64,000 nt of DNA, from the NCBI GenBank assembly GCA_963704725.1, contig OY969934.1:2304001-2368000 (forward strand). Reading direction: 5' to 3'. This document shows positions 43,968 to 64,000 of this stretch, piece by piece; within the stretch, counting starts at the first letter, position 1; each line of letters starts with the position of its first letter. Origin of the DNA: an uncultured Actinomycetes bacterium. Lineage in GTDB: Bacteria > Actinomycetota > UBA4738 > HRBIN12. Both the position numbers and the translations under genes were made by a program. The notes beneath the pieces are model-generated. The model ran no database searches and had not been told where the DNA came from. It saw nothing but the letters and a program-made list of their open reading frames with translations.

Positions 43968-44957
43968 CTACGCCATCGTCAGGGCCATGAGCGCCTTGCC
44001 CGTGTGCATCCGGTTCTCGGCTTCGTCGTAGACGACCGAGTGCGGGCCGTCGATCACCGCGTCGGTGACCTCCGTGCCGCGGTCGGCGGGCAGGCAGTGC
44101 ATGTAGAGCGAGTCGCCCTTGGCCAGGTCCATCCGACGCTCGTCGCAGATCCAGTCGCGGTACCTGGCGGCGTCGGCAAGCGCCGCGGGCTCGTCCGTGA
44201 ACAGGTCGAGCCGGCCCCACGACTTGGGGTACACGACGTCGGCGCCCTCGAACGCGGCGTCCATGTCGTTCGTGAACTCGATCGACCCGCCGCCTTGCCC
44301 GGCAAGCTCTTCGGCGTTCTTGCGGACCTCCGGCATCAGGTCGAAGCCGGGAGGGTGCGCCAGGACGACGTCGATGCCGTATCGCGGCAGCAGCGTGATG
44401 AGCCCCTGGGGGACCGAGAGCGGCTTGGCGTAGCTCGGCGCGAACGCCCAGCTCACGGCCACCCGCATGCCGCGGAGGTCGTCGCCTCGCTGCTCACGCA
44501 GGGTCATGAGGTCGGCCAGCGTCTGGGTGGGGTGGTCGACGTCGCACTGCAGGTTGATCACGGGGATCTCGGCCCACCGGGCCACCTCGCGCATGTAGGC
44601 GTTGCCCTCGTACGGCTCGAGGTCGTGGCGGATGGCCAGGCCGTGACCGTACCGGGACAGGATGATCCCCATGTCCTTGGGGCTCTCGCCATGCGCGACC
44701 TGGGTCTTCTCGGCGTCCAGGAAGTGCGCGTGCGCGCCGAGCTGCGTGGCTCCGGCCTCGAACGCGTTCCTCGTGCGCGTCGACTTGTCGAGGAACAGCA
44801 TGAACAGCGTCTTGTCCGGCAGCAGCCGGTGGGACTCGCCGGCCTTGAACTTGGCCTTGAGCTCGCGCGCGAACGCGACGGCCTCGTCGATCTCCTCGGT
44901 GCTCCAGTCCCGCGTCTCGATGTAGTCCCTGCCTCGGAGCGACGAACGGTCGGTCAC
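43968..44957 (-). CDS. YgeW-like (knotted) carbamoyltransferase
   Basis: STRT, NLQCDVDHPTQ, SWAFAPSYAKPLSVPQG, VYPKSW, YMHCLPAD all match YgeW-type signatures. Confidence 0.85.
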   Translation of the reverse strand: MTDRSSLRGRDYIETRDWSTEEIDEAVAFARELKAKFKAGESHRLLPDKTLFMLFLDKSTRTRNAFEAGATQLGAHAHFLDAEKTQVAHGESPKDMGIILSRYGHGLAIRHDLEPYEGNAYMREVARWAEIPVINLQCDVDHPTQTLADLMTLREQRGDDLRGMRVAVSWAFAPSYAKPLSVPQGLITLLPRYGIDVVLAHPPGFDLMPEVRKNAEELAGQGGGSIEFTNDMDAAFEGADVVYPKSWGRLDLFTDEPAALADAARYRDWICDERRMDLAKGDSLYMHCLPADRGTEVTDAVIDGPHSVVYDEAENRMHTGKALMALTMA

Positions 44958-45005: not shown

Positions 45006-47391
45006 TCAGCCCCCGGAAAGGGCGCTCTGGCCGAGCTCGGCACCGAAGTACTCGGGCACGGGCCGCTGGCCGGGGACCTCGGGCACCGGCGGCCACGGCG
45101 GGGCCTCGAGTCGCCGCAACCCGACGACGTCGTCCGGCTGCACGGGCGCGCGGTTCAGCTCGCGGCCGGTGGCCTCGCGGATCGCGGCGACGACGGCGGC
45201 GGTCGAGACGATCGTCGAGATCTCGCCAACCCCCTTCGCCCCGAACGGCACGTCGGGTTCGGGGTCCTCGACGACCGTGGTGACCACCGGCGGCATGTCC
45301 AGGATCGTGGGGATGAGGTAGTCGGTGAAGGACGCGTTCGCGATCCGGCCCTCCCGCAGGCGGAGCTCCTCCATCACGGCCAGCCCCAGACCCTGGGCGC
45401 TCCCGCCCTCGCTCTGCCCCTCCACCCCCTGCGGGTTGAGCGCCGCACCGACGTCGAGCGCCGACGCGAGCTGGACCGCCTTCACCAGGCCGAGCTCCTC
45501 GTCCACCTCGACGACGGCTCGCATCGCGCCGAACGCGAACATGACGTGGACGTCGCCCTGGCCGCGCTCGTCGAACCCCGTCGTCTCGCGGTGGTGGAAG
45601 GTGCGGGTGGCGACGACGGCCTCCTCGAGCAGGTCGACCAGGTCCGCGATCGGCACGCCGTCGGCCAGCACCTGCCCGTCGGCGAGCGAGAGGTTCCCCT
45701 CGGGCTGCAGCCGAGCCACGGCCCGGGCCAGGACCTCCTCGGCGACCGCGCGCGACGCGGCCTGCACGGCCCCTCCGCCCATGAACGTCTGCCGCGACGC
45801 GCTCGTCGAGCCGGCGGACTCGACCTGCGTGTCGGCCGAGTGCAGCGTGACGTCCTGCACGCCGAGCTCCTCGCGCGCGATCTGGGTGACGATCGTCGAG
45901 AACCCCTGGCCGCACTCGACGCCGGCACTGTGGACCTCGACGACGGGCCCCTGCGGCCCGGCCGAGAGCGTCACCCTGGCCTGGTGGAAGTCGTCGAATC
46001 CCTCGCTGTAGGCGATGTTCTTGTAGCCGACCGCGAAGCCGACGCCCCGTCGCAGCCCCTCGCCGTGGCCGACGTTGCCGGCGCCGCCCGGAAGGCCCAT
46101 CGGATCGCGCGCCGCCGGGGGCTCGGGATCGGGAGGCAAGGGGAGCGCCCGGCACCGCTCGATCACCTCTCGGACGGGAGCGCTGCCCCGGATCACCTGT
46201 CCGGTCGGCAGGACCGAGCCCGGGCCGACGACGTTGCGCAGACGCAGCTCGACGGGGTCGAGGCCGAGCGTCTGCGGCCAGCCGGTCCATGTTGGCCTCG
46301 TGGGCGAAGCAGACCTGCGGCGCACCGAAGCCGCGCATCGCGCCGCACGGCGGGTTGTTCGTGTAGACGGCCGTCCCCTGAAGGAGCGCGTTCGGCACCT
46401 CGTACGGCCCGGCCAGGAACGTGGTCGCGTTGCCGATCACCGCCGGCGAGGACGAGGCGAACGCGCCGCCGTCGATCACGATCCGACCGCGCACGGCGAC
46501 CAGCCGCCCGTCCCGCGTCGATCCGGTCCGCAGCCAGATCCGCGCGGGGTGCCGGTGGACGTGGGCCAGGAACGACTCCTCGCGGCCGTACGACATCTTC
46601 ACCGGCCGCCCGGTGCGCATCGCGAGGAGACAGGCGTGGATCTGCATGTGGAGGTCCTCGCGGCTCCCGAACGCGCCGCCCACCCCGGCCAGGGTGATCC
46701 GCACGCGCTCCTCGGGAAGGCCGAGCACCGGGGCGATCTGCTGCCGGTCGACGTGGAGCCACTGCGTCGAGACGATCAGGTCGATCCCGCCGTCCTCCGC
46801 CGGGATGGCCAGGCCGGCCTCCGGCCCGAGCGCGGCCTGGTCCTGCATCCCGGTTTCGTAGTAGCCCTCCACCCAGACCTCGGCGTCGGCGTCGGGGTCC
46901 CCGTGCTCGATGCGGACGTGCCGCAGCACGTTGCCCCACTCGCGGAGCTTCGGCGCGCCGGGCTCGAGCGCGCCGACCATGTCGAGCACCGGGTCCAGGA
47001 CCTCGTACTCGACGTGGATCCGGGCGGCGGCGCGTTTGGCGAGCTCGAGGGTCTCGGCAGCGACCACGGCGACCGGTTGGCCGGCGTGCAGGACCACGTC
47101 CCACGGCAGCACCGGCTGGTCCGAGAACTCGAGCCCGTACGTCTTCTTGCCCGGCACGTCCTCGTGGGTCAGGACGGCCTGGACGCCGGGGCTGGTGAGC
47201 GCCTCGGCCACGTCGATCCGCAGGATCCGGGCGTGCGGGTGTGGGCTTCGGAGCGTGGCACCCCACAGCATGCGCTCGTGCCACAGGTCGCTCCCGTACG
47301 CGAACGTTCCCTTCGCCTTGGGGACGCCGTCCACCCGGCGGACGCGTTCGCCGACCCGCCCTCGCGTGCGCTCCCCGAGCCGCGTGCTCAT
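45006..47391 (-). CDS. Xanthine dehydrogenase Mo-binding subunit (PucD-like), with one frameshift near 46276
   Basis: LRSPHPHA, GGAFGSRE, GAMRGFG. After the shift: LGLDPVELR, TSASRQT, GAKGVGE. Confidence 0.88.
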
Positions 47392-48743
47392 GCGCGCTCA
47401 CCCCCGATCCGAGCGCCGATCCGACGCCCCTCGCGAGCGATCTCGTCCTCGTCCGCCGTCACCAGGCGCCCGTCGCGCACGACGATGTGGCCCTCCACCA
47501 CGAGGTTCCGGACGCGCTCGCTGGCACCCATCAGGAGGCCCGCGACGGGATCGGCGTCCGTCCCCGCGTGGGCGATGCCGTCGACCCCGAACAGCGCGAC
47601 GTCGCCCCGCTTGCCCGGCTCGATCGATCCGACGTCGTCGCGGCCGAGCACCTCCGCACCGCCGCGTGTGGCGAGACGAAGCGCCTCGCGCGCCGTCAGC
47701 CCGCGCTCCGGCCCCCCGGCGCGCGACACGAGCATGGCCTGGCGGATCTCGGCGAACAGGTCGCACGGCTCGTTCGAGGCCGACCCGTCCACGCCCAGGC
47801 CGACCCGCGCCCCCTCGTCGACCAACGCGCGGACCGGAGCGATCCCGGCGCCGATCCGCAGGTTGGAGGAGGGGCAGGAGGCCACGCCCGTCCGCGTGTC
47901 GGCGATCCGCCGGACGTCCTTCTCGTTCAGGTGGATGGCGTGGGCGAACCACACGTCGGGGCCGAGCCAACCCCAGTCGTCCATCAGCTCCAGCGGGCGG
48001 CGTCCGAAGCGCTCGAGGCAGAACCGCTCCTCGTCGAGCGTCTCGGCGAGGTGCGTGTGCATCGGCACGCCGAGCCGGCGAGCGAGCTCGGCGCTCTCCC
48101 GCATCAGCCGCTCGGTCACGCTGAACGGGGAGCACGGCGCGAGCGCGACGCGGAGCATCGACCCGGGTGACGGGTCGTGGAACCGGGCCACGGCCTCCTC
48201 CGACCTCGCGAGCGCGTCGTCCGTGGACTCCACGACGGAGTCGGGCGGCAGCCCGCCGGCCGACTGGCCGAGGTCCATCGAGCCGCGGCACGGATGGAAG
48301 CGCACCCCGAGCTCACGCGCGGCGCCGATCTCCACCTCGAGGAGATCGCCCGCGCCCGCGGGGTGGATGTAGTGGTGGTCGGTGGTGGTCGTGCAGCCGG
48401 ACAGCGCCAGGAGCGCGAGCCCCACGCGCGCCGACGCCCGCTCCCACTCCGCGTCGACGCCCGCCCACACCGGGTACAGCTCGACGAGCCACCCGAACAG
48501 CCCCTGCTCTCTGGCCCGGGCCCGGGTGAGCACCTGATACAGGTGGTGGTGGGTGTTCACCAGACCGGGCAGGGCGATCTGACCACGGCCGTCGAGCCGC
48601 TCGTCGGGCTCGGCAGGCGGCGCCCCGGTCCCGACCCAGGCGACGGCCCCGTCCTCGATCAGGATCGAGCCGCCGGTCACCTCGGCGCCGTCGTCGCCCA
48701 TCGTGACGACGACGTCGCACGCCTCGATCAGGAGCCTGCTCAC
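47388..48743 (-). CDS. 8-oxoguanine deaminase-like amidohydrolase
   Basis: NTHHHLYQ, GCTTTTDHHY, RGSMD, APCSPFSV, HTHLAET, GVDGSASN. Confidence 0.85.
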   Translation of the reverse strand: MSRLLIEACDVVVTMGDDGAEVTGGSILIEDGAVAWVGTGAPPAEPDERLDGRGQIALPGLVNTHHHLYQVLTRARAREQGLFGWLVELYPVWAGVDAEWERASARVGLALLALSGCTTTTDHHYIHPAGAGDLLEVEIGAARELGVRFHPCRGSMDLGQSAGGLPPDSVVESTDDALARSEEAVARFHDPSPGSMLRVALAPCSPFSVTERLMRESAELARRLGVPMHTHLAETLDEERFCLERFGRRPLELMDDWGWLGPDVWFAHAIHLNEKDVRRIADTRTGVASCPSSNLRIGAGIAPVRALVDEGARVGLGVDGSASNEPCDLFAEIRQAMLVSRAGGPERGLTAREALRLATRGGAEVLGRDDVGSIEPGKRGDVALFGVDGIAHAGTDADPVAGLLMGASERVRNLVVEGHIVVRDGRLVTADEDEIAREGRRIGARIGGERA

Positions 48744-49213
48744 GCCAGTGCCTCCCGGCGCCGTTGCGCCGCAAGCGAAACGGCGTCGACGATCTTCTGG
48801 TAGCCCGTGCACCGGCACAGGTTCCCCGAGAGCGCCTCGCGCACGGCGAGGTCGTCGGGCGCCGGGTCGCGTTCGAGGAGGTCGGTCACCGCCACGATCA
48901 GCCCGGGCGTGCAGAACCCGCACTGCACCGCGCCGGCCTCCACGAACGCCTCCTGCACCGGATGCAAGAGGTCGCCGTCGGACAGCCCCTCGACGGTCCG
49001 GACCTCGCGCTCGTGCGCCTGGGCCGCGAGCACGAGGCACGAGCACACGAGCTCGCCGTCGAGCCACACCGAGCAGGAGCCGCACTCCCCCTGCTCGCAC
49101 GCGTTCTTCGACCCCGGGAGCCGGAGCTCGTCGCGCAGGAACGACAGCAGGCTCGAGCCCTCCCAGGCGTCGGCCTCCCGCCACTCCCCGTTGACGCGGA
49201 CCCGGATCAGCAC
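48740..49213 (-). CDS. XDH/CoxS-type (2Fe-2S)-binding subunit
   Basis: CEQGECGSC...C, QCGFCTPG, GNLCRCTGY. Confidence 0.93.
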   Translation of the reverse strand: MLIRVRVNGEWREADAWEGSSLLSFLRDELRLPGSKNACEQGECGSCSVWLDGELVCSCLVLAAQAHEREVRTVEGLSDGDLLHPVQEAFVEAGAVQCGFCTPGLIVAVTDLLERDPAPDDLAVREALSGNLCRCTGYQKIVDAVSLAAQRRREALA

Positions 49214-49271
49214 GGCCCGCCCCCCTCCGTGCCGGGCCGAACGCTCGCCTGCGGGCTCCCTCCCCGGGCGC

Positions 49272-50153
49272 TCACGACACCATCGCCTCCTCGGCGCGCT
49301 CCTCCATCGCCCAGCCGAGCGCGCGACGCGCCAGCACGCGGACGCCGTGCCGACGGTAGGCGGCCGTTCCCCGAACGTCGTCGATCGGGCTCGCCGCCTC
49401 CGCCACCTGTTCCGCGAACGCCTCCGCGACGCCCGGGGCGAGCGGCGCCGCGAGGTCGTCCCACGCGCCGGCGCGCTCGAGCTCGGCGACGAGCGCGGCC
49501 TCGGCGCCGGGGGCCCGAACGACGGTCGGGGCCACCGAGCCGAGGGCGACCCGCACGCTGCGACTCGCCTGATCGAGGACGAGGCACAGCGCCGCAACCG
49601 AGATCACCATCGCGTTGCGCGTGCCGATCTTCGAGAACGACTGCGGCCCGCCGGCGGTCCGCCACCGGGCCCCGAGGATCAGCTCGTCGGCCTCGAGCGC
49701 GTTCCGCTTCACCCCGAGCAGGAAGCCGTCCCACGGCAGCCACCGCTCGCCCCGCGCCGCCGAGACGAGCCCGATCTCCGCGTCGTGGGCCGCGAGCACG
49801 GGGAGCGCGTCGCCCGCCGGCGACGCCGTCCCGAGGTTGCCGCCCACGGTCCCCCGGTTCCGGATCTGGGGCGAGCCGACGGAGCGCGACGCCTCGGCCA
49901 GGGCGCGGAGCTGCGGCAGCTCCCGCTGGATCCGCGCATAGGTGACGCCGGCCCCGAGGACGACCAGCCCGTCGTCGATCCGCCACGTACGGAGCTCGGG
50001 CAGGCGAGACACGTCCAGGATGGCCTCGGGCCTGGCCAGGTCGAAGTTGATCTCCACCATGAGGTCGGTCCCGCCGGCGATCGGCACGGCCTCGGGATGG
50101 GCGGCGCGCAGCTCGAGCGCCTCCGCGAGCGTGGTCGGCAGGTAGGCCTCCAC
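49272..50153 (-). CDS. XDH/CoxM-type FAD-binding subunit
   Basis: IAGGTDL, SPQIRNRGTVGGN, SPAGD, PIDDVRGTAAYR. Confidence 0.93.
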   Translation of the reverse strand: MEAYLPTTLAEALELRAAHPEAVPIAGGTDLMVEINFDLARPEAILDVSRLPELRTWRIDDGLVVLGAGVTYARIQRELPQLRALAEASRSVGSPQIRNRGTVGGNLGTASPAGDALPVLAAHDAEIGLVSAARGERWLPWDGFLLGVKRNALEADELILGARWRTAGGPQSFSKIGTRNAMVISVAALCLVLDQASRSVRVALGSVAPTVVRAPGAEAALVAELERAGAWDDLAAPLAPGVAEAFAEQVAEAASPIDDVRGTAAYRRHGVRVLARRALGWAMEERAEEAMVS

Positions 50154-50156
50154 GGC

Positions 50157-51172
50157 TCAGAACTCCCCGCCCGCGAACGCGTCGATCATGGCCTCCACGT
50201 CGTCACCGAGCGGATACAGGACGGGGCACGTGCACCCGGCCTCGACGTACTCGCGCACCTTGGCCCGGCACTCGTCCGCCGTTCCCGAGGCCGTGATCAT
50301 CTGCACGACGTCGTCGGGAACCAGCCTCATGGCGCGGCGGATCTCCTCGGGGCCGGCCGGCCAGGTGAGGACCTTGCCGATCTCCTCCAGCAGCGACGGC
50401 TCGACGCCGCTCGCCTTCCCGATGTGCGGCTGCTGCCCCAGGTACTGCGTGACGAGCTCGCGCGCCCGGTCCAGGGCCAGGTCGCGATCCTCGTCGAGCG
50501 AGCAGACCACGAGCTGCGGACGGTCGATGTCCTCGACGCGCACGCCGCGCTTGGCGCGCCCGCCGCGAGCCGCTCCATCGCGGTCGCGTTGTACGCCGGG
50601 CTCACCAGGTAGTTGAGCAGCGCGCCGTCGGCGATCTCGCCGGCGAGCTCCATCATCTGCATGCCCGTCGCGCCGAGGTAGATCGGCACCGCTCTCGGCG
50701 AGCGGTCGCCGTGGACGATGTCGATCTGGATGTCCTCGACGTCGACGAACTCGCCGTGGAACGTCACGTTCTCCATCGCGATCAGCCGGCGGACGACTTC
50801 GACGTACTCGCGCATCGCGAGCAGCGGCCGCTCCCGCCTCACGCCGACCTTCGTGGCGAGCGGCTCCCACCACGCGCCGATCCCGAGCATGATCCGCCCG
50901 GGCGCCAGGTCGTCGAGCGTGACGAACGTCGCCGCCATGAGCCCGGCGTTCCGCGTCCAGTTGTTCACGACCCCGGATCCCACCTTGATGCGCTCGGTCG
51001 TCGCAGCGAACGCGGCCATCGGCACCGTGGCCTCGCGCACGAGGCGGCTCTCGGCCTGCCACACGGCCTCGAACCCCTGGGCCTCGGCGTGTCGCACGTA
51101 CCGGATGCCGTCGGCGAGCGGGTGCTTGTCCTGCAGGTAGATCGCCACGCGCCCCTCGGAGCTCACCGCCAC
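50157..51172 (-). CDS. LLM-class (Mer-like, probably F420-dependent) oxidoreductase, with one frameshift near 50556
   Basis: [59 protein letters not shown]-terminus [18 protein letters not shown] lies in the shifted frame. Confidence 0.85.
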
Positions 51173-51173
51173 C

Positions 51174-52517
51174 TCACGCACCCCCCGCCGGCTCGAACGG
51201 GTGGGCCGGGATCGCGTCCATGCGGTTCCACAGGTCCTGGGCCGCCGCCTGCGCCAGGGCCCGGGGTTCGCCCTCGTCCTGGGTCGCCAGTCGCCGGTCC
51301 CTGACGACGACGGAGCCATCAACCACGACGTCGCGGACGTTGGACGCGGACAGCCCGAACACCCAGTGCCCGGCGAGGTTCTCCGCGCTGAGCGGTGTGG
51401 GGGGGTCGTAGTCGAGCACGACGAGATCGGCGGGCGCTCCGGGCTCGATCCGGCCCAGGAGCGGCTCCCCGAACGCGCGCCCGGCGAACGCGGCCCCGGC
51501 GGCGAGACGGCCGAGCACCCACGACGGCGAGATCGAGGGGTCGTCCTCGTGGCCGCGCCAGTAGGCGGCGCGTGACTCGGCGAACATGTCCCCGTCGATC
51601 CCGTCCGTTCCGAGCGCCACCCGCTCGCCGAGCGCGCCGACGGGGGCCCGCCCGACGCGGTTGTTCATGTTCGACCGCGGGTTGTGAACCACCCAGGCGC
51701 CGGCGTCGCGGATCAGGCCGATCTCGCGGTCGTCGACGTGCACGCAGTGCGCGAGGAGCGATCGCTCGGTGAGTGCGCCCGCATCGGCCAGGCGCTCGAC
51801 CACGCGACGCCCGAACCGGGCCTCGGCGTCGCGCTCGTCGGCGGCATCCTCGGCCACGTGGACGTGGATCCCGACCAGGAACTCGTCCGCAAGCGAAACG
51901 CAAGCAGCGAGCGTCTCCGCGGACAGGGTGAAGGAGGCGTGCGCCCCGACCATCGTCCGCAGCGTCGATGAGGCATCGTCGGCCCGGTCCTCCTTGAGAC
52001 GGCGAAGGGTCTCCTCGAGCCCGGCGGCCGCGGCGTCGAGGCCGTCGCGGTCGGTGACCTCGTAGCACAGGATCCGGCGGGCGCCGAGGCTGCTCAGGCC
52101 CTGGTCGAGCCACTCGAGCGACGCCGCGATGGCGGTCGGCGAAGCGTGGTGGTCGACGATCGTCGTCGTCCCCGAGAGCAGGGCATCGGCGCCGCCCGTC
52201 ATGGCCGACCGAAGGATCGATGTCGGGTCGAGTGCCCGGTCGAGCCGCCACCACACGCGCTGGAGGATCTGCACGAAGCTCTCCGGCGGCTCGAGGCGGT
52301 AAGGCATCCCTCGAGCCAGCGCCGAGTAGAGGTGGTGGTGCGCACACACGTTGCCCGGGATCACCAGGCAACCCGTGCAGTCGATCACGTCGGCCGATGG
52401 CTCCGCGGTCGCGCCCTCCGCCGCGATCCGGCCGTCGACCACCAGGACGTCGATCGGCCGGAGCGCCGGCGGATCGAGCGACGTGACCACCGTCCCGCCC
52501 GACAGGAGCAGGGTCAC
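51174..52517 (-). CDS. SsnA-like amidohydrolase
   Basis: [72 protein letters not shown]. Confidence 0.85.
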
Positions 52518-55127
52518 TCGGCCTCCGCGCGCCGGGCGGCCGCCCCGGCGAGCCGCGGGGCGAGCGCGGCACCCGCCGCCGAGTCGCGCATCGGGAGCTT
52601 CGTCCGCCACGTGCCCTCGAACGCGTGGAGCGCGCCGGCGCAGGCGGCCGCCGTCGGCACGAGTCCGATCTCGCCGACGCCCTTGGCCCCGAACGGCCCC
52701 TCGGGCTGCGGCACCTCGACCAGGATCGTCTCGACGTCCGGCATCCGAGGCGCCGGCACGATGCCGAGCGACTTCAGGGTGGTCGTCGTGGGGAACCCGC
52801 CCTCGACGGCGTACTCCTCGGTCAGGCCGAACCCCAGGCCCATGTGCACGGCGCCCTCGATCTGGCCCTCGAGCAGCGTGGGGTTCATGGCCCTGCCGAC
52901 GTCGTGCGCGGCGACGACCTTCTCCACGTGGCCCTCGTCGTCCAGGATCACGACCTGCACGGCCCAGCCGAAGGCGAAGTGCGTGACGGGGTTCGGGGCG
53001 TCCGATCCCGGCTTGTCCGTCCAGTCCACGACGATCTCGCCGTAGAACTCGCGGCCCGCGAGATCCTCGAGCCGGCTGCCGATCAGCTCCGCCTTGAGCT
53101 TCTTCGCCGCCTCCTGGATGGCGCGGCCGCCGAGGACCGTCGAGCGCGACGCCGTGGTCTGCCCGGTGTCGAGCTCGCGCATCGTGTCGACGATCACGTG
53201 GACCCGATCCGCCGTGATGCCGAGCTCCTCACAGACCACCTGCAGCAGGACGGTGTTCACGCCCTGGCCCATCTCGGTCCACGAGTGGAACAGCGTGACC
53301 GTGCCGTCGGCCTCGGGCCGCAGGATCGCCCGGCCGAACTCCGTCAGCCCGTTGCCGATCCCGGTGTTCTTCACGCCGGAGCCGATCCCCGCGTACCGGG
53401 CTCCCCGGTAGGCGTCGCGGACGGCCTCCAGGCACGCCTTGATCCCGACGCCCTCGCCCAGCACCTGCCCCGTGCCGAAGCGGTCGCCGACCTCGAGCGC
53501 GTTGCGCCACCGGATCTCCCAGGGGTCGAGGCCCACGAGCTCGGCCAGGCGGTCGAGCATCCCGTCGATCGCGAACATCACCTGGTTCACGCCGAAGCCG
53601 CGGAACGCGCCGCACGGCGGGTTGTTCGTGTAGACGGCCCGGGCCTCGACGTCGACCGCGTCGAACGCGGTACGGCCCGCACGCGTGCCCGGCCGCCCGC
53701 TCGAGCACCTTGTCGCCGACGCTCGCGTACGCGCCGGTGTCGCCGACGATCCGCGCCCGGACCCCGGTCAGCCTGCCGTCGGCCTCGCACCCGACCGTGT
53801 ACGTCATCGTGAGCGGGTGGCGCTTGGGGTGGAAGCGGAGGCTCTCGGCCCGCGTCAGCGTCAGCAGGACCGGCCGCCCCGTCGCCACCGCGGCGAGCGC
53901 GGTGTGGCACTGCACGTTCAGGTCCTCCTTCGCGCCGAACGCGCCGCCGTTGGAGACCTGGGTGACGCGGACGCGCTCCTCCGGCCATCCGAGGAACGAG
54001 GCGATCTGCCGACGGTCCTCCCACACGCCCTGCCCCTGGGACGAGACGTGGACCGTCCCGTCCGCCTCCGGCACCGCGAACGCGGACTCGGGCTCGAGGA
54101 AGGCGTGCTCGATGAACTGGGTCTGGAACGTCTCGGTCAGCACATGCGCCGATCCCTCGAGGGCGGCGTCGACGTCGCCACGCTTCACGATCGAGGTCGA
54201 GAGCAGGTTGCCGCTCTCGTGCAGCGCCGGGGCCTCCGGGGCCAGCGCGTCGAACGGGTCGGTGAGCGGCTCGAGCACCTCGTACTCGACGGCGACGAGC
54301 TCGGCAGCGTCGCGGGCGGCGCGCCGGGTCTCCGCGACGACGATCGCGAGCACGTCGCCGACGTAGCGCGTGATCTCGCCCTCGGCGACGACCTGGGGCC
54401 AGTCTCGCGTGATCAGGCCCTGGGCGCGCTCCCCCGTGACGTCGTCGGCGAGGAGCACGGCCACGACCCCCTCGTGCGCCAGCGCCGGCGCGGGATCGAT
54501 CCGCACCAGGCGCGCCCGGGGGTGGTCGCTGAACCGGAGCGCCCCGTGGAGCATCCCGGGCGCCGTGAGGTCGTTGATGTACGGCTTGTCCCCGAGCGCC
54601 AGCTCCCGGCCCTGGTACCGCGCCGTCCGCGAGCCGACCCGCCCCGACATCTCGGGCTCCGGCATGGGCTCGCCGGCGCGCGAGCGGGCCACGAGGTCGA
54701 CGGCATCGACGATCTTGAGGTAGCCGGTGCACCGGCACAGGTTGCCGGCGAGGGCCTTGGCGATCTCCTCGCGGGAGGGCGCGGGGTTCTTGGCCAGCAG
54801 GCCCTCGCCCTTCATCACGATGCCCGGCGAGCAGAACCCGCACTGCGACGCGCCGGAGACGACGAACCCGTCCGCCCACCGCTCGCGCTCCTGCGGCTCG
54901 AGGCCCTCCTGCGTGACGATGTGACGCCCCGCCACCCGGTCGGCCTTCTGCGCGCACGAGACCACGGCCTTGCCGTCGACCAGCACCGTGCAGGCCCCGC
55001 ACGAGCCCTCCGGGGCGCACCCGTCCTTCACCGAGGTCACGCCGAGCTCCTCGCGGAGGAGCTCGAGCAGGCTCATGCCCGGGCGAACCTCGGCCGAGAC
55101 CGGTCGTCCGTTCAGCGTGAGGTCCAC
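52514..55127 (-). CDS. Fused (2Fe-2S)+Mo subunit, 'selenium-dependent xanthine dehydrogenase'-like, with one frameshift near 53664
   Basis: KDGCAPEGSCGAC, QCGFC, NLCRCTGY, EHAFLEPE, GGAFGAKED. After the shift: GAFRGFGVNQ, TTASR, GAKGVGE. Confidence 0.85.
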
Positions 55128-55182
55128 GAGGGCCTCGCCTCCTTCTCGCCGCATCGAACTGCTCGCATCATGAGGCCGCCCG

Positions 55183-56139
55183 TCATCGTTCGGCCGGACC
55201 GATCCTCGTGCCGGTCTCCCCCGCCAGCGCGCGGGCCACGCTCTCGGGGTTGGTGATCAGGGCGGTGCCGCCGGTGGCCTCGACGAACGCGACCGCGGCC
55301 TCGATCTTCGGCGCCATGCTGCCCTTGGCGAAGTGCGTGCCCTCGGCCAGGTACGCCCGGGCCTCCTCCGGCGTCAGGTGGTCGACCCATTCCTGCTCCG
55401 GCGTGCCGAACCGGAGCGCGACCTTCTCGATCGACGTGCTGATCACGAACAGCTCCGCCCCCAGCGAGGACGCCAGCAGCGAGGAGGCACGGTCCTTGTC
55501 GATGACCGCGGCGACGCCGCGGAGATCGCCGTTCTCGTCCGCGACCACGGGGATCCCGCCGCCGCCGACGGCGATCACGACGACCCCGGCGCGCAGGAGG
55601 TCGCGGATCACGGCTTCCTCGACGATCCGCATCGGCTCCGGCGAGGCGACCACCCGGCGCCAACCGCGGCCGGCGTCCTCGACCACGCTCCACCCCTCCT
55701 CGTCCCGGCGGCGGGCGGCCTGCGCCTCGTCCATGTACGAGCCGATGGGCTTGGTCGGATCCCGGAACGCCGGGTCGTCCGCCGCCACCTCGGTCTGCGT
55801 GATGACGGTGGCGACGCGCTTGTCGATGCCGAGCCGGGCGAAGTCGTTGTACAGGTTCTGCTGGAGGGCGTAGCCGATCGCCCCCTGCGTGTCGGCCCCG
55901 CACACGTCGAGCGGGACCTCGTGGAGCTCGTGAGCGGCGAGCTCGGACCGGCGGAGGATGAACCCGACCTGCGGGCCGTTGCCGTGCGTGATGGTCACGT
56001 TCCAGCCGTCGCGGATCATCCCGGCGATGTGCATGCACGTCTCGCCGGCGGCGATGTACTGATCGCGCACCGTCTGGTGCATCGTGTCCTTGATCAGCGA
56101 GTTCCCGCCGATCGCGACGACCGCCGTGCGCTCACCCAT
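55183..56139 (-). CDS. arcC: Carbamate kinase
   Basis: VAIGGNSL, THGNGPQVG, PTKPIG, WRRVVASP, AVIDKD, GSMAPKI. Confidence 0.96.
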   Translation of the reverse strand: MGERTAVVAIGGNSLIKDTMHQTVRDQYIAAGETCMHIAGMIRDGWNVTITHGNGPQVGFILRRSELAAHELHEVPLDVCGADTQGAIGYALQQNLYNDFARLGIDKRVATVITQTEVAADDPAFRDPTKPIGSYMDEAQAARRRDEEGWSVVEDAGRGWRRVVASPEPMRIVEEAVIRDLLRAGVVVIAVGGGGIPVVADENGDLRGVAAVIDKDRASSLLASSLGAELFVISTSIEKVALRFGTPEQEWVDHLTPEEARAYLAEGTHFAKGSMAPKIEAAVAFVEATGGTALITNPESVARALAGETGTRIGPAER

Positions 56140-56157
56140 CGCCGGTCCCGAACCCCC

Positions 56158-57111
56158 CTACTCCACCGCGCCCAGGACCAGCGACAGCAGGGCCATCCGC
56201 ATCACGACGCCGTTGAACGCCTCGGTCCAGTATCGGGCGTGGCGGGTCGCATCGACGTCGGCCGGCAGCTCGTCCATCCGAGGGAGCGAGTGCAGGATGA
56301 TGGCGTCGCTCTTGGCCTTCTCGCCCAGCAGCTGGCGGGTCACGCGGTACTCGGCGGGCGTGGTGGGGAGCTCTCCGCCGCGCTCGTCGCGCCCCTTCGT
56401 GTAGTCGGCCTGCACCACCGGCTCCATGTAGATGACGTCGACGTCGCCGATGACCTTCTCGACGGACTCGGCCTCGATGTACCGGACGTTGCGCTCGTCG
56501 AGCTCCGTCTTGAACTCCGGCAGGAGCGACATGTCGGGCGGGCCGACGACGTAGGAAACGACGTCGAACTGGCTGAACGCGTACAGGATCGAGTGCATCG
56601 TCCGCATCCGCATGTCGCCGACCAGCAGGAAGTTCAGCCCGTCGATGCGGCCGCGCTCCTTCCACGTCGTGTAGAGGTCGGTGAGGACCTGCGTGGGGTG
56701 CTCGCCCCAGCCGTCCCCGCAGTTGATGATCGGCACCGAGGCCCACCTCGCGGCCTCCTCGGGCGCGCCCTGCTGGAAGTGCCGCATCGCGATGACGTCC
56801 GCGTAGAACTCCAGCATGTGGACCGTGTCCTTGATCGACTCCTGGTAGAAGTCGCCGGCGCGGGTGTTCTTCGCGTCGGAGAACCCGAGCACGTGCCCGC
56901 CGAGCCGGTGCATGGCCGCCTCGGTGGCCATCCGCGTCCGGGTGCTCGGCTGGTAGAACGCCGTCAGCAGGCTCTTGTCCTTGAGCAGGTCGCTGTTGCG
57001 CCGCCCCTTCGCGATCGGCGCGAGCCGGTCGCAGATCTCGAAGACGTGGAAGAACTCCTCCCGCTCGAACTCCTTGAGCGAAAGGATGTCGCGTCCGGCG
57101 AAGCTCCTCAT
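56158..57111 (-). CDS. Aspartate-carbamoyltransferase-family enzyme with a non-canonical substrate site
   Basis: PSTRT, MRH, EHPTQ and HSLPR are retained. YMEPVVQ stands where ATCase has YxTRxQxER. Confidence 0.8.
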   Translation of the reverse strand: MRSFAGRDILSLKEFEREEFFHVFEICDRLAPIAKGRRNSDLLKDKSLLTAFYQPSTRTRMATEAAMHRLGGHVLGFSDAKNTRAGDFYQESIKDTVHMLEFYADVIAMRHFQQGAPEEAARWASVPIINCGDGWGEHPTQVLTDLYTTWKERGRIDGLNFLLVGDMRMRTMHSILYAFSQFDVVSYVVGPPDMSLLPEFKTELDERNVRYIEAESVEKVIGDVDVIYMEPVVQADYTKGRDERGGELPTTPAEYRVTRQLLGEKAKSDAIILHSLPRMDELPADVDATRHARYWTEAFNGVVMRMALLSLVLGAVE

Positions 57112-57130: not shown

Positions 57131-58473
<1,343 letters not shown>

Positions 58474-58477
<4 letters not shown>

Positions 58478-59967
58478 GCCACCTCGATGCCCGAACGGGC
58501 GTTGAACGCCCGGATCGCCTCGTCCCACGCCGGCATCAGGTCGCGCAGGCCGCGCCAGAACCCCTGGTCGCGCCGGGCCGTGAAGTCCTCGATCGACACG
58601 CCCTGCTGCTCGACCCACGTGAAGTACCCGAGGTTGAAGACCCGGTCTCGGTCCTCGTCCGTGAGCTGGGCCATGTCGCCCGTGCCCTGCCCCTCGAGAG
58701 AGCGGCCGAACGTCTCGGCGGCCTCGGCCTCCCCGAACCCGCCGGGGAAGTCGCGCGCCAGGACCTTGTCGACCTCCGTGCGGTACATCGAGGCGCCGTC
58801 CGTCGCGATCGTCACGATGACGTCGTCGGCTCCCAGATGCTGCAGCCTCGCCGTCTTGATCGCGCCGAGGACGTTGCAGATGCTCGAGAGCCCGAAGGAG
58901 TCCAGGGCGGAGATCGTCGCCTCGTCGACGCCGCGCCGGCGGAGGTAGGCCCGGCCCTCCGCGGTGTTGAACAGGACGTTCAGCCGGTCGGTGTCCCGGT
59001 CGCTGAGGTCCACCACGACGTCGGTGTTCATGACGTTGTGGATCAATGGAACGTGCTTGTCGCCGATCCCCTGGATGTTGTGCTCGCCGAACCCGTTGCG
59101 GAGCAACGTGGGACACTCGAGCGCCTCGGCCGCGACGATGGACGTTCCGTACCGGTCTTTCAGGTGGTCGCCGGCCGCGATCGTGCCTGCGGAGCCGGTG
59201 GCGGAGACGAACGCGCGCAGGCGCAGTCCCGGGTCGCGCTCGCGCAGCGTCTCGAACACGTGGGCCAGCGCCCGGCCCGTGACCAGCTCGTGCACGAGGT
59301 GGTTGGGGTACTCCGAGAACTGGTTCAGGATCACGTTCCCCGGATCCACGGCCAGGCGCTTGCACTCGTCGTAGATCTCGCGGACGTTGCTCTCCACGCC
59401 CGGCGTCCGGATGACGTCGGCGGCGTCGAGGACCCACCGCTCCAGCCACTCGAACCGCTCGCGGCTCATGCCCTCCGGTAGGACCGCCACGCCCCGGCAC
59501 CCCATGATGCGGCTGATGGCCACGCCGCCCCGGCAGTAGTTGCCGGTCGAGGGCCACACGGCCCGGTGCGCGGTCGCGTCGAACTCGCCGCCGACGACCC
59601 GGGGCACCAGGCAGGCGTAGGCCGCCAGGACCTTGTGCGCGCCGATCATGGGGAAGCGGTCGCCGAGCACGACCACGATCTTCGCGTCGACGCCGGTGAG
59701 CGACGACGGCAGGACCACGTGCGCGGGGACCTCGACGATCCCTCGCCGGTCCGCGGCGTTGTACCAGTGGACGCGGAACAGGTTCAGCGGGTGGGCGGAG
59801 TCGGGGTCGATGCCCGCGAGCTCGTCGCGGATCCGCTGGGGGATCTTGGCGGGCTCCGCCAGCTGCTCGAACGTGGGCAGCGCGATCCCCGCCTCACGGA
59901 ACCGGTCGACCGTCCGCTCCTGGATCCGCGGATCGGCGACGTCGTGCTCGAGGCCCGATCCCGTCAT
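58474..59967 (-). CDS. Large PLP-dependent (fold II, cysteine-synthase-like) enzyme of unknown specificity
   Basis: FPMIGAHKV (PLP Lys), [43 protein letters not shown]. Confidence 0.82.
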
Positions 59968-60174: not shown

Positions 60175-60444
60175 GTGGACACCGTGAGCGCACCGGCGGA
60201 TCGGCGCAGGGTCAGGGCCGAGTTCACCGTCTTCCCCTTCCGTGAGAGCGAGGCCCTGCCGGCCCACGCCCGGGCCGCCGTGGAGGCGGCTCGATCGGCC
60301 GGTGCGGAGGTGGACGTCGAGCCGCTGTCCAGCGTCGCCTCGGGTGAGGTCGAGGTCGTCCTCGAGGCCGTGCGCGCGGCGGCCATCGCCGCGTTCGGGG
60401 CGGGAGCGACGCGGTTCACCCTCAACGTCGAGGTGGAGCCGTGA
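60175..60444 (+). CDS. Small thiamine-binding-protein-like (YkoF/ferredoxin-like fold) protein
   Basis: AEFTVFPF...[13 protein letters not shown]...[13 protein letters not shown]. Stop overlaps the next start. Confidence 0.7.
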
Positions 60445-60926
60445 CCGCGGAGACCGAGTTCGCGCAGGCGCTGGCGGGGGCGCTCGGGCCCCTGTACCGC
60501 GTGTCCGTCGTCGGCTCGAACGGGGACGTCGAGGCGACGTTCCGGGCCCCGGACCAGGCCGAGGCCGGGGTCCCCTCGAGCCGGATCGGGCTCCCGGGCT
60601 CCTCCTCGTGCCTGGTGGTCGAGGTCGACGTCGGCGCGCTCCAGGCCGCCGACCGCGTCCTGCACGAGCTCGCCCGGGCCAGATGGGAGACCTCGATCGG
60701 CCTGCCCAACCTGGACGGTGCCCTCGAGGAGCTGATCTCCGACGCCGAGTCCAGGATCGGACGGCCGGTCGCCGAGATGAGCCGGATCGACAAGCAGCGG
60801 CTGGTCAAGTTCCTGGACGAGCGCGGGGCGTTCTCCCTCCGCAAGTCGGTCGAGGGGGTCGCCCTCGTGCTCGGGGTGAGCCGATTCACGGTCTACAACT
60901 ACCTCGACGCCTCGCGAGGCTCTTGA
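60441..60926 (+). CDS. YheO/DauR-type HTH transcriptional regulator
   Basis: [38 protein letters not shown]. Confidence 0.85.
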
Positions 60927-61170
60927 CGGCGCCCCCGGCGTGCGCGGAGACGGCCCGCTCCCGGGCCCCACGACCCCATCGCAGCGGGCCGTTTGCCTCA
61001 GCGCCCGTCTCCGCCCCGCCCGGCATGCTTGCCGACGGCGTTCAACATTCCGACAGGTCGGGAGCGATCACCGTGCGGAACCCCCAGCCGATCCCCCGTC
61101 GATCCGCGTCCACGGTTCGTGCGGCGGCGGGGTCGCCCTGCGGCCACCCCCGGACGCGGCGGCCGGTCGC

Positions 61171-62353
61171 GTGACGATCGCCGCCCGTGGGGACCTGCGC
61201 CGGTTCCTGGTGAGCTGGTTCGCGCTGCCGGGGGCCGCGCTCGCCGCCCTGCTGGTCGGCGCGGCGATGCTCCTCGCGCTCGGCGCGAACCCTCTGACCG
61301 GATACCGCGCGCTGGCCGAGGGAGCCTTCGGCAGCTTCGATGCGCTCGCCGACACGGCGATCAAGGCGGTGCCGCTGGTGCTCGTCGGCGTGGGCATCTG
61401 CATCGCGTTCCGCGCCAACGTCCTGAACATCGGCGGCGAGGGTCAGATGGTCATGGGCGGCCTGGCGGCCACGGCGACGGCGATCGCCGTCCCCGGCGTG
61501 CCCGCGCCCCCTCATGGTGCCGCTCGTGCTGCTCGCCGGCGCCGCCGGCGGGGCCGTGTGGGGGGCGATCCCCGGGTCGCTGAAGGCCTACCTCAACGTC
61601 AACGAGATCCTGTCCACGATCATGCTCAACATCGTTGCGGTGCAGGTCATGAACTATCTGCTCGCCGGACCCATGGTCGACAAGGAGTTCTCCGGCTTCT
61701 CCCTGATCCCGCAGACCAAACGGCTCGCGCCGAGCGCGGACCTGCCGGTGCTCCCCGGCGGAACGAAGCTCCACGCGGGGGTCGTCGTGGCGGTGCTCGC
61801 CGCGGTGCTCGTGTACGTCCTGCTGTGGCGAACGGGGCTCGGGTTCCGGCTACGCGCGGTGGGGCTGTCGCGAGAGGCGTCCGCGTACGCGGGCATCCCC
61901 GTGAAGCGGACCATCACGCTGGCGATGACGCTGGCCGGGGCCATGTCCGGCCTGGCCGGCGCCGTGGTGGTCTTCGGCGGGGCCTCGCACCGGATGGTCA
62001 CGGACGGCACCGCGACGGGGTTCACCGGATCCGCGGGCTTCAACGGGATCGTCGCCGCCCTGTTCGGGGGGCTGCATCCCGTGTGGACGATCCTGTCCGC
62101 GTTCGTCTTCGGCGGCCTGCTCGTCGGTGGCAACGCCATGCAGATCGCCGTCCAGGTCCCGACGGCGCTGGTCGTGGCGCTGAACGGCGTGCTCGTGGTC
62201 TTCGTCGTCTCGATCGAGTACCTGCGCCGCCGGGCCCGACTGCGGCTCGAGGTGCCCGCCGGCGCGCTGGCCGAGAGCCGTCCCCGGCTCGAGCCCGCCG
62301 CCGCGGGGGCCGCCGCGGCGGCGGAGGATCCCCCCGGGGAGGCCGGCGGATGA
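61171..62353 (+). CDS. Nucleoside/sugar (CUT2) ABC permease 1, with one frameshift near 61510
   Basis: LNIGGEGQ. After the shift: NVNEILSTIMLN, GFRLRAVG, GFNGIVAALFG. Confidence 0.87.
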
Positions 62354-63282
62354 GGGACTTCTTCACCCTCACCGTGCTCACGGCCACCGTCGCCGCCGGG
62401 GTCCGGCTGGCCACCCCGTTCCTGCTGGCCAGCCTTGGCGAGACCATCGGACAGCGCAGCGGGGTCCTCAACCTGGGCGTCGACGGGATCATGCTGCTCG
62501 GCGCCTTCGGCTCGTACTACACGGCCCTGCACTCGCACAGCCTGTGGCTCGCGGTGCTGGTCGGCGCGCTCGTCGGGGCGACGATGGGCCTCGTCACGGC
62601 CTTCGTCAGCGTGACGCTGAAGGCCGAGCAGGGCATCAGCGGCATCGGCGTCTTCCTGTTCGGCCTGGGGCTGTCCGACCTGCTGTTCCAGAAGCTCGTG
62701 GGCACGCCCGTGCCGATCCCGACGTTCCCCACGGTCAAGGTCCCGCTCCTCGCGAGCATCCCCACCGTCGGCGAGATGCTGTTCCAGGCCAACCTGATGG
62801 TCTACCTGGCCTTCCTGCTGGTCCCCGTCCTCGCGTTCGTCCTCAACCGAACGACGTACGGCACCAACGTGAAGGCGGTGGGCGAGAACCCGGCCGCCGC
62901 CGACAGCGTCGGCGTGAACGTCGCGCGGGTGCGGTACTCCACGGTCCTGCTGGGCAGCACGCTCGCCGGCGTGGCCGGCGCGGCCCTCGCGCTCCAGCTC
63001 GGCATCTTCCAGCAGAACCTCACCCAGGGGCAGGGGTTCATCGCGGTCGCGCTGGTCTACTTCGGCGCGTGGCGTCCCGTGGGCGTGATGGCCGGCTCGC
63101 TCCTCTACGGGATGGTCGCGGCCACGGTCCTGACGTGGAAGACGCTCGGGATCATCCCGCAGAGCGCCTCGGACCTGGCGGCGATGGCTCCGGCGGTGCT
63201 CACCGTCCTCGCCCTCGTCGTCGTCGCCCGGCGCTTCCGGCAGCCGGCCGCCCTGGCCAGGCCCTACGAACGAGGAGGCTGA
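62350..63282 (+). CDS. Nucleoside/sugar ABC permease 2
   Basis: LGETIGQRSGVLNLGVDG, AVGENPAAADSVGVNV, GQGFIAVALVYFGAWRP. Confidence 0.92.
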   Translation: MRDFFTLTVLTATVAAGVRLATPFLLASLGETIGQRSGVLNLGVDGIMLLGAFGSYYTALHSHSLWLAVLVGALVGATMGLVTAFVSVTLKAEQGISGIGVFLFGLGLSDLLFQKLVGTPVPIPTFPTVKVPLLASIPTVGEMLFQANLMVYLAFLLVPVLAFVLNRTTYGTNVKAVGENPAAADSVGVNVARVRYSTVLLGSTLAGVAGAALALQLGIFQQNLTQGQGFIAVALVYFGAWRPVGVMAGSLLYGMVAATVLTWKTLGIIPQSASDLAAMAPAVLTVLALVVVARRFRQPAALARPYERGG

Positions 63283-63343
63283 GGACGCTCGAGGGACGGA
63301 TCCCCGCATCACCGAAGGCACGGATCCCGAAGGAGGGGTTGGC

Positions 63344-64000
63344 ATGGACACGAAGCTGCTTCGATGGGCCCGCCTCGCGGCCATCGTCGCGGTCCTGGCG
63401 ATCGTCGCCGCGGCCTGCAGCGACGACGGCACCACGAACGGGCCGACGAACACCGGCACCACCGGCACGACGGCGACGACGACCGGGACCACCGGCACCA
63501 CCGGCGCCACCGGCACCACGGCCGCCGAGCCGTTCCGCGTGGCGGTCGTCGCACCGAGCGCCACGAACGACCTGGCGTTCACGCAGTCGATGGTCGACGC
63601 GCTGAACACCCTGAAGGACTCCGAGAACCTCGACATCGCGGTCTCGGACAACCTGTTCGTCGTGGACGACGCGGCGAGCGCGCTCCAGAACTACGCCGAG
63701 CAGGGCTACGACCTGGTCATCGCGCACGGGTCGCAGTTCGGCGGCATCATCGAGCAGCTCGCGCCGGAGTTCCCCGACGTCTCGTTCGCCTGGGGCACGG
63801 CGGGCGACACCTTCGGCCAGCCCAACGTGTACGCCTACCAGGCCGCGTCGGACCAGGGCGGCTACGTCCAGGGCGTGCTCGCGGCGGGGCTGACGCAGAC
63901 CAAGAAGATCGGCGTGGTCGGCCCCATCGAGGTCGGCGACGCGAAGCTGTACGTCGACGGGTTCGTCGCCGGCGTCGCGGCCGCCGATCCCTCGGTCAAG
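63344..64000 (+). CDS. BMP-family (purine nucleoside) ABC substrate-binding lipoprotein, partial
   Basis: Lipobox VAAAC, Thr/Gly linker, NDLAFTQS, GYDLVIAHGSQF, GGYVQG, KKIGVVG. AAGGAGG RBS. Confidence 0.9.
   Translation, partial: MDTKLLRWARLAAIVAVLAIVAAACSDDGTTNGPTNTGTTGTTATTTGTTGTTGATGTTAAEPFRVAVVAPSATNDLAFTQSMVDALNTLKDSENLDIAVSDNLFVVDDAASALQNYAEQGYDLVIAHGSQFGGIIEQLAPEFPDVSFAWGTAGDTFGQPNVYAYQAASDQGGYVQGVLAAGLTQTKKIGVVGPIEVGDAKLYVDGFVAGVAAADPSVK

Follow-up and report, generated by a model that had tools for sequence, protein, structure and literature searches.

A 64,000-nucleotide stretch of the genome of an uncultured Actinomycetes bacterium (contig OY969934.1, positions 2,304,001 to 2,368,000; called the window here) carries a gene at positions 56158–57111 of the minus strand whose 317-residue product resembles aspartate carbamoyltransferase (ATCase). 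We conclude that this ATCase-like gene almost certainly encodes a catabolic carbamoyltransferase and not an aspartate carbamoyltransferase, and that its ATCase label is in all likelihood wrong. The enzyme is probably a phosphorolytic pseudo-ATCase, which stands in for the hydrolase YgeY in a soil-type form of the reductive urate pathway.

The gene begins with an ATG codon preceded by a ribosome-binding site (GAGGAGG), and both carbamoyltransferase halves are present in the product (Pfam OTCace_N, 142.7 bits; OTCace, 83.8 bits). An earlier note on this DNA had read the carbamoyl-phosphate motifs STRT, HPTQ and HxLP in the protein, and had described the loss of the aspartate-binding RxQxER motif and of the SxxKGE loop. 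Alignment bears out each of these readings. The third motif is HSLP, the sequence YMEPVVQADY stands at the position of YxTRxQxER in ATCases, and NTRAGDFYQES stands at that of SxxKGE[ST]. The closest solved structure is the ATCase of Pyrococcus abyssi (1ML4), which matches over the full length with 247 bits. Relative to 1ML4, R229 is replaced by P, Q231 by V, K83/K84 by F/Y and E50 by Q; the 80s loop is two residues longer, and the 240s region is five residues longer. In E. coli ATCase, R167 binds the α-carboxylate of aspartate, and R229 and Q231 bind the β-carboxylate. K84 is important for ATCase catalysis. Residues S52, T53, R54, T55, R105, H134, Q137, R167, L267 and P268 are kept in 81 of 81 aligned orthologues, and the same 81 share the exchanges E50 to Q, T228 to E, R229 to P, P266 to S and K84 to Y. 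RxQ, which is listed as the "ATCase motif" in Table 1 of PMC4016543, is gone from every one of them, as is KGE. Because all 81 orthologues share the active-site pattern, it is not an oddity of a single sequence.

Every named relative in the databases is labelled "aspartate carbamoyltransferase", a consequence of the narrow pass over the cut-off of TIGR00670 (242 bits against 236.95). The scores for two further ATCase models were 211 bits for PRK00856 (cut-off 263) and 174 bits for PRK08192 (cut-off 512). The earlier note had asked whether the genome holds a separate true pyrB. The host genome is a single contig of 3.45 Mb, and a canonical pyrB (YMLRVQRERQ, HPGP) was found in it at G000:C1:~2,075,000. 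It lies 285 kb away and adjoins a dihydroorotase (DHOase)-like gene. The refuting condition of the earlier note, by which the ATCase-like gene would be the sole pyrB, therefore fails. An OTCace_N domain is encoded by four genes of the genome, at about 2.05, 2.08, 2.35 and 2.36 Mb: an argF-like gene (HCLP), the canonical pyrB and two within the window. The ATCase-like protein is 29% identical to the canonical PyrB and 27% identical to the other carbamoyltransferase of the window, a YgeW-like protein. No PyrI or dihydroorotase family was detected by Pfam among the 32 + 35 open reading frames (ORFs) of the window, which agrees with the absence of pyrC and pyrI claimed earlier. Two carbamate kinases are encoded in the genome. 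The second one (G000:C1:1799195-1800118, 390.9 bits) was considered as a marker of another transcarbamylase module and rejected, as none of the four OTCace_N genes is near it.

When 1.84 billion representative sequences were scanned, the relatives formed essentially one tight cluster, its full-length representatives being 77–80% identical, followed by a drop to 50% or less. We tabulated the motifs of 105 sequences (94 full-length representatives and 11 references). E50, KGE and TRxQxER mark the true ATCases. Q50 (in some cases E or D), an 80s loop of the R-A-G-D type and the absence of RxQ mark a diverse set to which the ATCase-like clade belongs. The transcarbamylase phylogeny that the earlier note had called for was calculated with IQ-TREE (quick mode) from 104 rows, after removal of the broken rows P0129, P0138, P0146 and P0166. 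In this tree, the ATCase-like clade is monophyletic, with a Shimodaira–Hasegawa-like approximate likelihood ratio (SH-aLRT) support of 99, and it lies outside the true ATCases. It is nested in a clade of 41 rows (SH-aLRT 96) without any true ATCase. One row of the larger clade, P0139, had been labelled a true ATCase by regular expression and reads YMESLKNAPGVA at the ATCase-motif site. Another of its sequences has HPLA, which in the available text of PMC4016543 is the motif of the UGTCase group assayed for allantoate phosphorolysis. The YgeW-like protein of the window groups with E. coli YgeW (SH-aLRT 99). By its sequence, the ATCase-like protein is one of the "pseudo-ATCases" of Barba et al. 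2013 (PMC4016543). It is an ATCase-annotated paralogue in a genome that also has an authentic ATCase, it keeps STRT and HPTQ, it has lost RxQ, its HPLP motif is altered (HSLP, PVV), and its nearest authentic relative is a class II ATCase of the P. abyssi type (1ML4).

Two studies from 2025 solved the reductive urate ("yanthine") pathway (PMC12507026; bioRxiv 10.1101/2025.04.24.650524). As set out in their available text, urate is converted to 2,8-dioxopurine by XdhD and then to the dihydro form by YgfK or UacX, after which SsnA yields ureidomethyl-hydantoin and HyuA yields 2,3-diureidopropionate. With phosphate, YgeW takes one ureido group off as carbamoyl phosphate, from which ATP is made via YqeA. 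The other ureido group is hydrolysed by YgeY to give diaminopropionate, and YgeX converts this to pyruvate. Profile searches of the host genome found no YgeY (best match 134.9 bits, cut-off 321.5) and no YgeX (39.1 bits, cut-off 274). In a sample of 401 genomes of the phylum, nine have an orthologue of the ATCase-like enzyme at 71% identity or more. SsnA (at least 319 bits) occurs in 30 genomes of this sample, relatives that are not independent of one another; 21 of them have YgeY, six have the ATCase-like enzyme, three have neither and none has both. The YgeY of one of the 21 (G347) is split over two contigs. If the unpublished genomes G018, G239, G174 and G120 (YgeY) and G268 (orthologue) are left out, the split becomes 17, 6, 3 and 0. 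The YgeY type comes from families f6, f42, f25 and f3, and the ATCase-like type from f1, f3, f45 and f12, plus f67 (unpublished). Each of the 21 YgeY genomes has a gene of the YgeW type, and so has each of the six ATCase-like genomes, five of these with E≤1e-50 and the sixth (G130) by tblastn.

The ATCase-like gene and the 11 other genes of its operon are all on the minus strand. They are given here from the first gene to the last, followed by the divergent genes.

58474–59967, minus strand: PALP_B, a CysK-like fold-type-II pyridoxal phosphate (PLP) enzyme, 497 residues; first gene of the operon
57131–58477, minus strand: PALP_A, a fold-type-II PLP enzyme, ThrC/dehydratase-like, with a Cys-rich N-terminus, 448 residues
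56158–57111, minus strand: ATCase-like ("pseudo-ATCase") carbamoyltransferase, 317 residues; the gene under study
55183–56139, minus strand: carbamate kinase, 318 residues, starting 18 nt past the stop of the ATCase-like gene
52514–55154, minus strand: molybdenum enzyme with fused 2Fe-2S domains, XdhD-like or like "selenium-dependent xanthine dehydrogenase"
51174–52610, minus strand: SsnA-type aminohydrolase (PRK07203, 418.8 bits against a cut-off of 444; TIGR03314, 396.5 against 455.5)
50157–51322, minus strand: luciferase-like (LLM, F420-type) oxidoreductase
49272–50153, minus strand: subunit of a molybdenum hydroxylase that binds flavin adenine dinucleotide (FAD)
48740–49200 (start approximate), minus strand: 2Fe-2S small subunit (Fer2 and Fer2_2 in ORF 48740–49597)
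47388–48737, minus strand: 8-oxoguanine deaminase-like amidohydrolase (NF006055, 617.8 bits against a cut-off of 532)
45006–47391, minus strand: PucD-like molybdenum subunit of xanthine dehydrogenase
43968–44957, minus strand: short YgeW-like carbamoyltransferase, 329 residues; last gene of the same-strand run
60441–64000, plus strand: HTH_22 regulator, two permeases of an ATP-binding cassette (ABC) system and a Bmp/PnrA-type binding protein; divergent, running off the window

The carbamate kinase passes two curated cut-offs (PRK12352, 376.7 bits against 266; TIGR00746, 360.3 against 358.25). A separate YgeW-like enzyme does close the operon, as the earlier note had it. Its best match is YgeW PRK07200 with 247 bits, under the cut-off of 453; the SsnA and YgeW-like proteins of the window both score under their equivalog cut-offs. 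The stop codon of PALP_B overlaps the start of PALP_A (GTGA), and the pair is translationally coupled. Searches of NCBIfam and the PDB gave only weak ThrC/dehydratase and CysK matches for the two PLP proteins, far under the cut-offs; no solved structure is related to PALP_A at E≤1e-8. The 8-oxoguanine deaminase-like gene inside a urate operon suggests that 8-oxoguanine or guanine is an input of the pathway. The divergent HTH_22 regulator and Bmp/PnrA-type ABC genes are probably the regulator and the uptake system of this purine island; in the permease region within 60441–64000 on the plus strand, ORFs overlap in two frames. The G+C content of the window is 72%, and its remainder consists of housekeeping genes (rpsB, ffh, ftsY, smc, recG and others).

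A genome of the same order (G059; locus L111, G059:C2:44001-64000) has a collinear operon in which YgeY (495 bits) is directly upstream of the XdhD-like gene. The order there is regulator, YgeY, XdhD-like, ThrC-like PLP enzyme, SsnA, LLM, FAD subunit, 2Fe-2S subunit, deaminase, PucD and YgeW-like. YgeY thus occupies the slot that in the window is filled by PALP_B, PALP_A, the ATCase-like gene and the kinase, and the YgeW-like protein is 79% identical to that of the window. The PLP gene between the XdhD-like gene and SsnA is threonine-synthase-like (294 bits, cut-off 303). Among published genomes of the YgeY type, four from family f6 were compared, and each of the four has a YgeX-like gene by the cluster; PALP_A was found in none of the five YgeY-type genomes tested. 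Judged by gene content, a module of two PLP enzymes and the ATCase-like enzyme alternates with one of YgeY and a YgeX-like or ThrC-like lyase. The proposal of the earlier note, in which YgeY gives way to a second transcarbamylase that works by phosphorolysis, draws its support from comparative genomics, namely the genome without YgeY, the 21/6/3/0 split and the swap in G059.

There are at least 579 related loci. Synteny was scored by tblastn in the best 80, of which 39 span 20 kb or more, with the proteins of the window and of E. coli K-12. The enzymes of these best 80 loci are 76–93% identical to that of the window, and all come from metagenome-assembled genomes (MAGs). The majority belong to the Actinomycetota (Gaiellaceae, Thermoleophilia, Acidimicrobiales), and a handful carry the labels Chloroflexia, Verrucomicrobia, Phycisphaerales, Spirochaetota or those of other phyla. 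The partners, with the count in the 39 longer loci after the count in all 80, are XdhD-like (66; 37), PALP_B (65; 37), PALP_A (58; 33), YgeW-like (58; 35), carbamate kinase (54; 31), SsnA (53; 33), LLM (48; 29), HyuA-like (18; 10), YgeY-like (4; 2) and YgeX-like (2; 0). Most of the loci that lack a YgeW-like gene stop before the end of the operon. PALP_A is the gene directly upstream in 49 of the 80 loci. The gene directly downstream is XdhD-like in 35, YgeW-like in 33 and the carbamate kinase in 6. In most related loci, the ATCase-like gene is preceded by the PALP pair, whose alternates are YgeX-like or ThrC-like lyases. In loci L091 and L101, both on MAG contigs labelled Verrucomicrobia, the ATCase-like gene comes right after YgeY and before the genes for the FAD, 2Fe-2S and molybdenum subunits.

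The setting of the ATCase-like enzyme would be the lower half of the soil-type (F420/LLM) reductive urate (2,8-dioxopurine) pathway. Here, both ureido groups of 2,3-diureidopropionate would have to come off before pyruvate is made by a PLP enzyme. One group would be removed by the YgeW-like enzyme and the other by the ATCase-like enzyme, each with phosphate, and the two carbamoyl phosphates would yield ATP through the adjacent carbamate kinase. The ATCase-like enzyme would then act at the step of YgeY in E. coli and Clostridium, and the upstream PLP pair at that of YgeX. Phosphorolysis of a ureido group, a reaction demonstrated with the related UGTCase and with YgeW, is proposed because the carbamoyl-phosphate site is kept and a kinase adjoins the gene. 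The substrate, the reaction direction and the ATP yield (up to 2 per urate) are those that we infer for the enzyme.

Which ureido group YgeW removes is a point on which the two 2025 studies disagree, and it is listed as open in the available text of PMC12990295. For Li et al., the product of YgeW is albizziin, which YgeY and YgeX turn into pyruvate (PMC12507026); Liu et al. assigned YgeY to the 2-ureido group. The ATCase-like enzyme quite possibly attacks the 2-ureido (N-α-carbamoyl) group, at chances that we put a little short of even, because R167 is retained and the β-carboxylate binders R229 and Q231 are lost. The same combination of a kept α-carboxylate arginine and lost β-carboxylate binders is the reason to suppose that the 2-ureido group would be the one normally hydrolysed by YgeY. 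The invariant Glu228 could pair with a β-amino or β-ureido group. Taken together, these three features would fit 2,3-diureidopropionate or 3-amino-2-ureidopropanoate, in which the side chain is neutral or cationic. Release of the α-amine just before the PLP enzymes would be chemically sensible, because PLP enzymes need a free α-amine. In the most far-reaching reading, which we hold to be less likely than not, the enzyme would be an N-α-carbamoyl-2,3-diaminopropionate (2-ureido):phosphate carbamoyltransferase, an undescribed activity; YgeW would cleave the 3-ureido group first, and together with the YgeW-like enzyme the yield would be two ATP per urate.

Several observations weigh against the proposed role as a substitute for YgeY. 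The enzyme has lost K84. In print, an R (D) configuration is proposed for the intermediates, and ATCases use L-aspartate. Phosphorolysis of ureido compounds is thermodynamically uphill, as stated in the available text of PMC12507026 and PMC4016543, and a literature search found no enzyme assay on the ATCase-like clade. In L080, L086 and L101, the ATCase-like gene has a true YgeY (411–564 bits) beside it; in L091, the neighbouring YgeY is partial. Neither L091 nor L101 has a YgeW-like gene within 10 kb. In these two loci, the ATCase-like enzyme seems to pair with YgeY, not to replace it, and it may act there in the part of YgeW. Such a pairing is compatible with YgeY taking either mono-ureido isomer, because the 2025 papers report different isomers, and the argument from displacement to regiochemistry is therefore weaker. 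In locus L038, which has the ATCase-like enzyme and carbamate kinase, a YgeW-like gene is absent within 10 kb, and four close relatives (G321, G248, G157 and G398) have no carbamate kinase in the operon and one elsewhere. HyuA is missing from the operon of the window. The sole strong hydantoinase of the genome is a D-hydantoinase (600.9 bits; G000:C1:2401734-2403080), which lies about 34 kb past the end of the window. At this site (L109 6140–10605; G000:C1:2400140-2404605), an LLM oxidoreductase, the D-hydantoinase/dihydropyrimidinase and an aldehyde dehydrogenase are encoded in a row; they may form an F420-type reductive route for pyrimidines or hydantoins, which could also provide the HyuA step.

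A further point of this kind is that three genes of the operon have one frame switch each: the XdhD-like gene near 53679–53689, the LLM gene at ~50560 and the PucD-like gene at ~46270–46325. In the XdhD-like gene, positions 2–486 and 511–845 of TIGR03311 match in two frames, and the window has one extra base at the switch site compared with relatives. These switches are probably assembly indels rather than decay. If the operon were decaying in this genome, the ATCase-like gene would be intact but without a complete pathway; we regard this as very improbable. Relatives L019 and L027 read each of the three genes in a single frame, and three switches in about 9 kb make the operon locally enriched over the genome-wide rate of 24 per Mb, which fits decay. 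That rate comes from a heuristic based on the G+C content of third codon positions, which recovered two of three known switches, and the 84 events it counted are spread over the whole 3.45-Mb genome. The same split matches occur in many long-read MAG relatives, and the genes for the transcarbamylase, the kinase and the PLP pair are all intact, with 85–93% identity to their counterparts in L027. Public sequencing runs were searched for the window stretch, and none held more than 0.07 of its words. Almost no weight can be given to the automatic annotation, by which the gene would be a genuine second aspartate carbamoyltransferase serving as a backup PyrB. The TIGR00670 score just above its cut-off, the label shared by all named relatives and the nearest solved structures, which are ATCases, speak for it. 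They are countered by the loss of RxQ and KGE in all 81 orthologues, the PRK00856 score of 211 against 263, the place of the clade apart from true ATCases in the tree, the canonical pyrB elsewhere in the genome with no pyrC or pyrI near the gene, and the constant catabolic gene context.

The remaining alternatives concern the substrate. Within the same pathway, the regiochemistry could be the opposite one: the ATCase-like enzyme would cleave the 3-ureido group (albizziin and phosphate giving diaminopropionate and carbamoyl phosphate), and the YgeW-like enzyme the 2-ureido group. This would match the order of Li et al. for E. coli, a substitute for YgeY would inherit albizziin as its substrate, and PMC12990295 treats the order of cleavage as open. 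We still consider it unlikely, as the retention of R167 and loss of R229/Q231 in 81 of 81 orthologues fit an α-amine acceptor, with the carboxylate on the same carbon as the reacting amine and not on the next one, given the roles of these residues in ATCase, and Liu et al. give YgeY the 2-ureido group. It is improbable that the enzyme phosphorolyses some other ureido compound, such as allantoate, ureidomethyl-hydantoin or N-carbamoyl amino acids derived from hydantoins, and has no more than a loose tie to diureidopropionate. The sole assayed pseudo-ATCase in the available text of PMC4016543 cleaves allantoate, the operon has no HyuA, and L091, L101 and L098 carry the ATCase-like enzyme without a YgeW-like partner. 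The motif pair, on the other side, is HSLP/PVV and not the HPLA/AIA of UGTCase, and no uricase or allantoinase family was found among the scanned ORFs of the window. When the genome was scanned with TIGR02033, the only strong cyclic amidohydrolases were a single hydantoinase and a single DHOase-like gene, and most loci link the ATCase-like gene to XdhD-like or SsnA genes.

Hundreds of environmental genomes carry a gene labelled aspartate carbamoyltransferase where the label almost certainly hides a catabolic enzyme. If the proposed role as a YgeY substitute is true, soil Actinomycetota, Chloroflexota and others would conserve both ureido groups as ATP in an O2-independent urate pathway, at twice the ATP yield shown for E. 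coli. The ATCase-like enzyme is also a handle on the order of ureido cleavage, which PMC12990295 calls unresolved in its available text; were the 2-ureido reading true, the published disagreement would be settled toward YgeW cleaving the 3-ureido group first. The exchange of a hydrolase for a transferase within one operon slot makes a clean case of enzyme evolution.

Compared with class II PyrB (1ML4), the ATCase-like enzyme has the same fold family, length and carbamoyl-phosphate site. It differs in the replacement of R229, Q231, K83/K84 and E50 and in its catabolic context. The UGTCase of Rubrobacter xylanophilus (Rxyl_2847), of pseudo-ATCase subgroup 1, phosphorolyses allantoate in vitro, as described in the available text of PMC4016543. 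The two enzymes are alike in their derivation from ATCase, in the catabolic reaction (ureido compound and phosphate giving amine and carbamoyl phosphate), in adjoining a carbamate kinase and in belonging to a purine cluster. In contrast, the allantoate used by UGTCase comes from the oxidative pathway, and its genes lie among uricase and allantoinase genes, not SsnA and XdhD. Its motifs are HPLA and AIA/AIS/SIA (PMC4016543), and the protein of the window has HSLP and PVV in their place.

Subgroup 2 of the pseudo-ATCases, from Nocardioides sp. JS614, is encoded beside a ygeW homologue, xdhABC and hyuA, and its function was left open in the available text of PMC4016543. It shares with the ATCase-like protein the ATCase annotation beside a real pyrB, the STRT and HPTQ motifs, H[ST]LP (HSLP here) and the loss of RxQ. 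The context of a ygeW homologue, xdh and hyuA recurs in many related loci, and the operon of the window includes the YgeW-like gene. The fourth motif of subgroup 2 is GX[SC] (PMC4016543), whereas the protein of the window has PVV by our alignment; V-Q-[AP], read if the alignment is shifted, would fit the VXP of subgroup 3. The assignment to subgroup 2, made from context and H[ST]LP, is provisional.

A known system of comparable gene content is that of E. coli and Clostridium, which in the available text of the 2025 studies consists of XdhD-YgfM, YgfK, SsnA, HyuA, YgeW, YqeA, YgeY as well as YgeX, and for which ATP formation by YgeW and carbamate kinase was demonstrated. A second transcarbamylase is not mentioned in the searched text of either PMC12507026 or bioRxiv 10.1101/2025.04.24.650524. 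The operon of the window differs in that it lacks HyuA and its YgeW-like protein is short (329 residues). An F420-type LLM gene takes the place of YgfK/UacX, and Li et al. report an F420-type luciferase-family gene for YgfK in Chloroflexota clusters (PMC12507026). The ATCase-like enzyme stands in place of YgeY, and the two PLP enzymes stand in place of YgeX. Like the known pathway, the operon unites an XdhD-like enzyme, an FAD subunit, SsnA, a YgeW-type enzyme and carbamate kinase.

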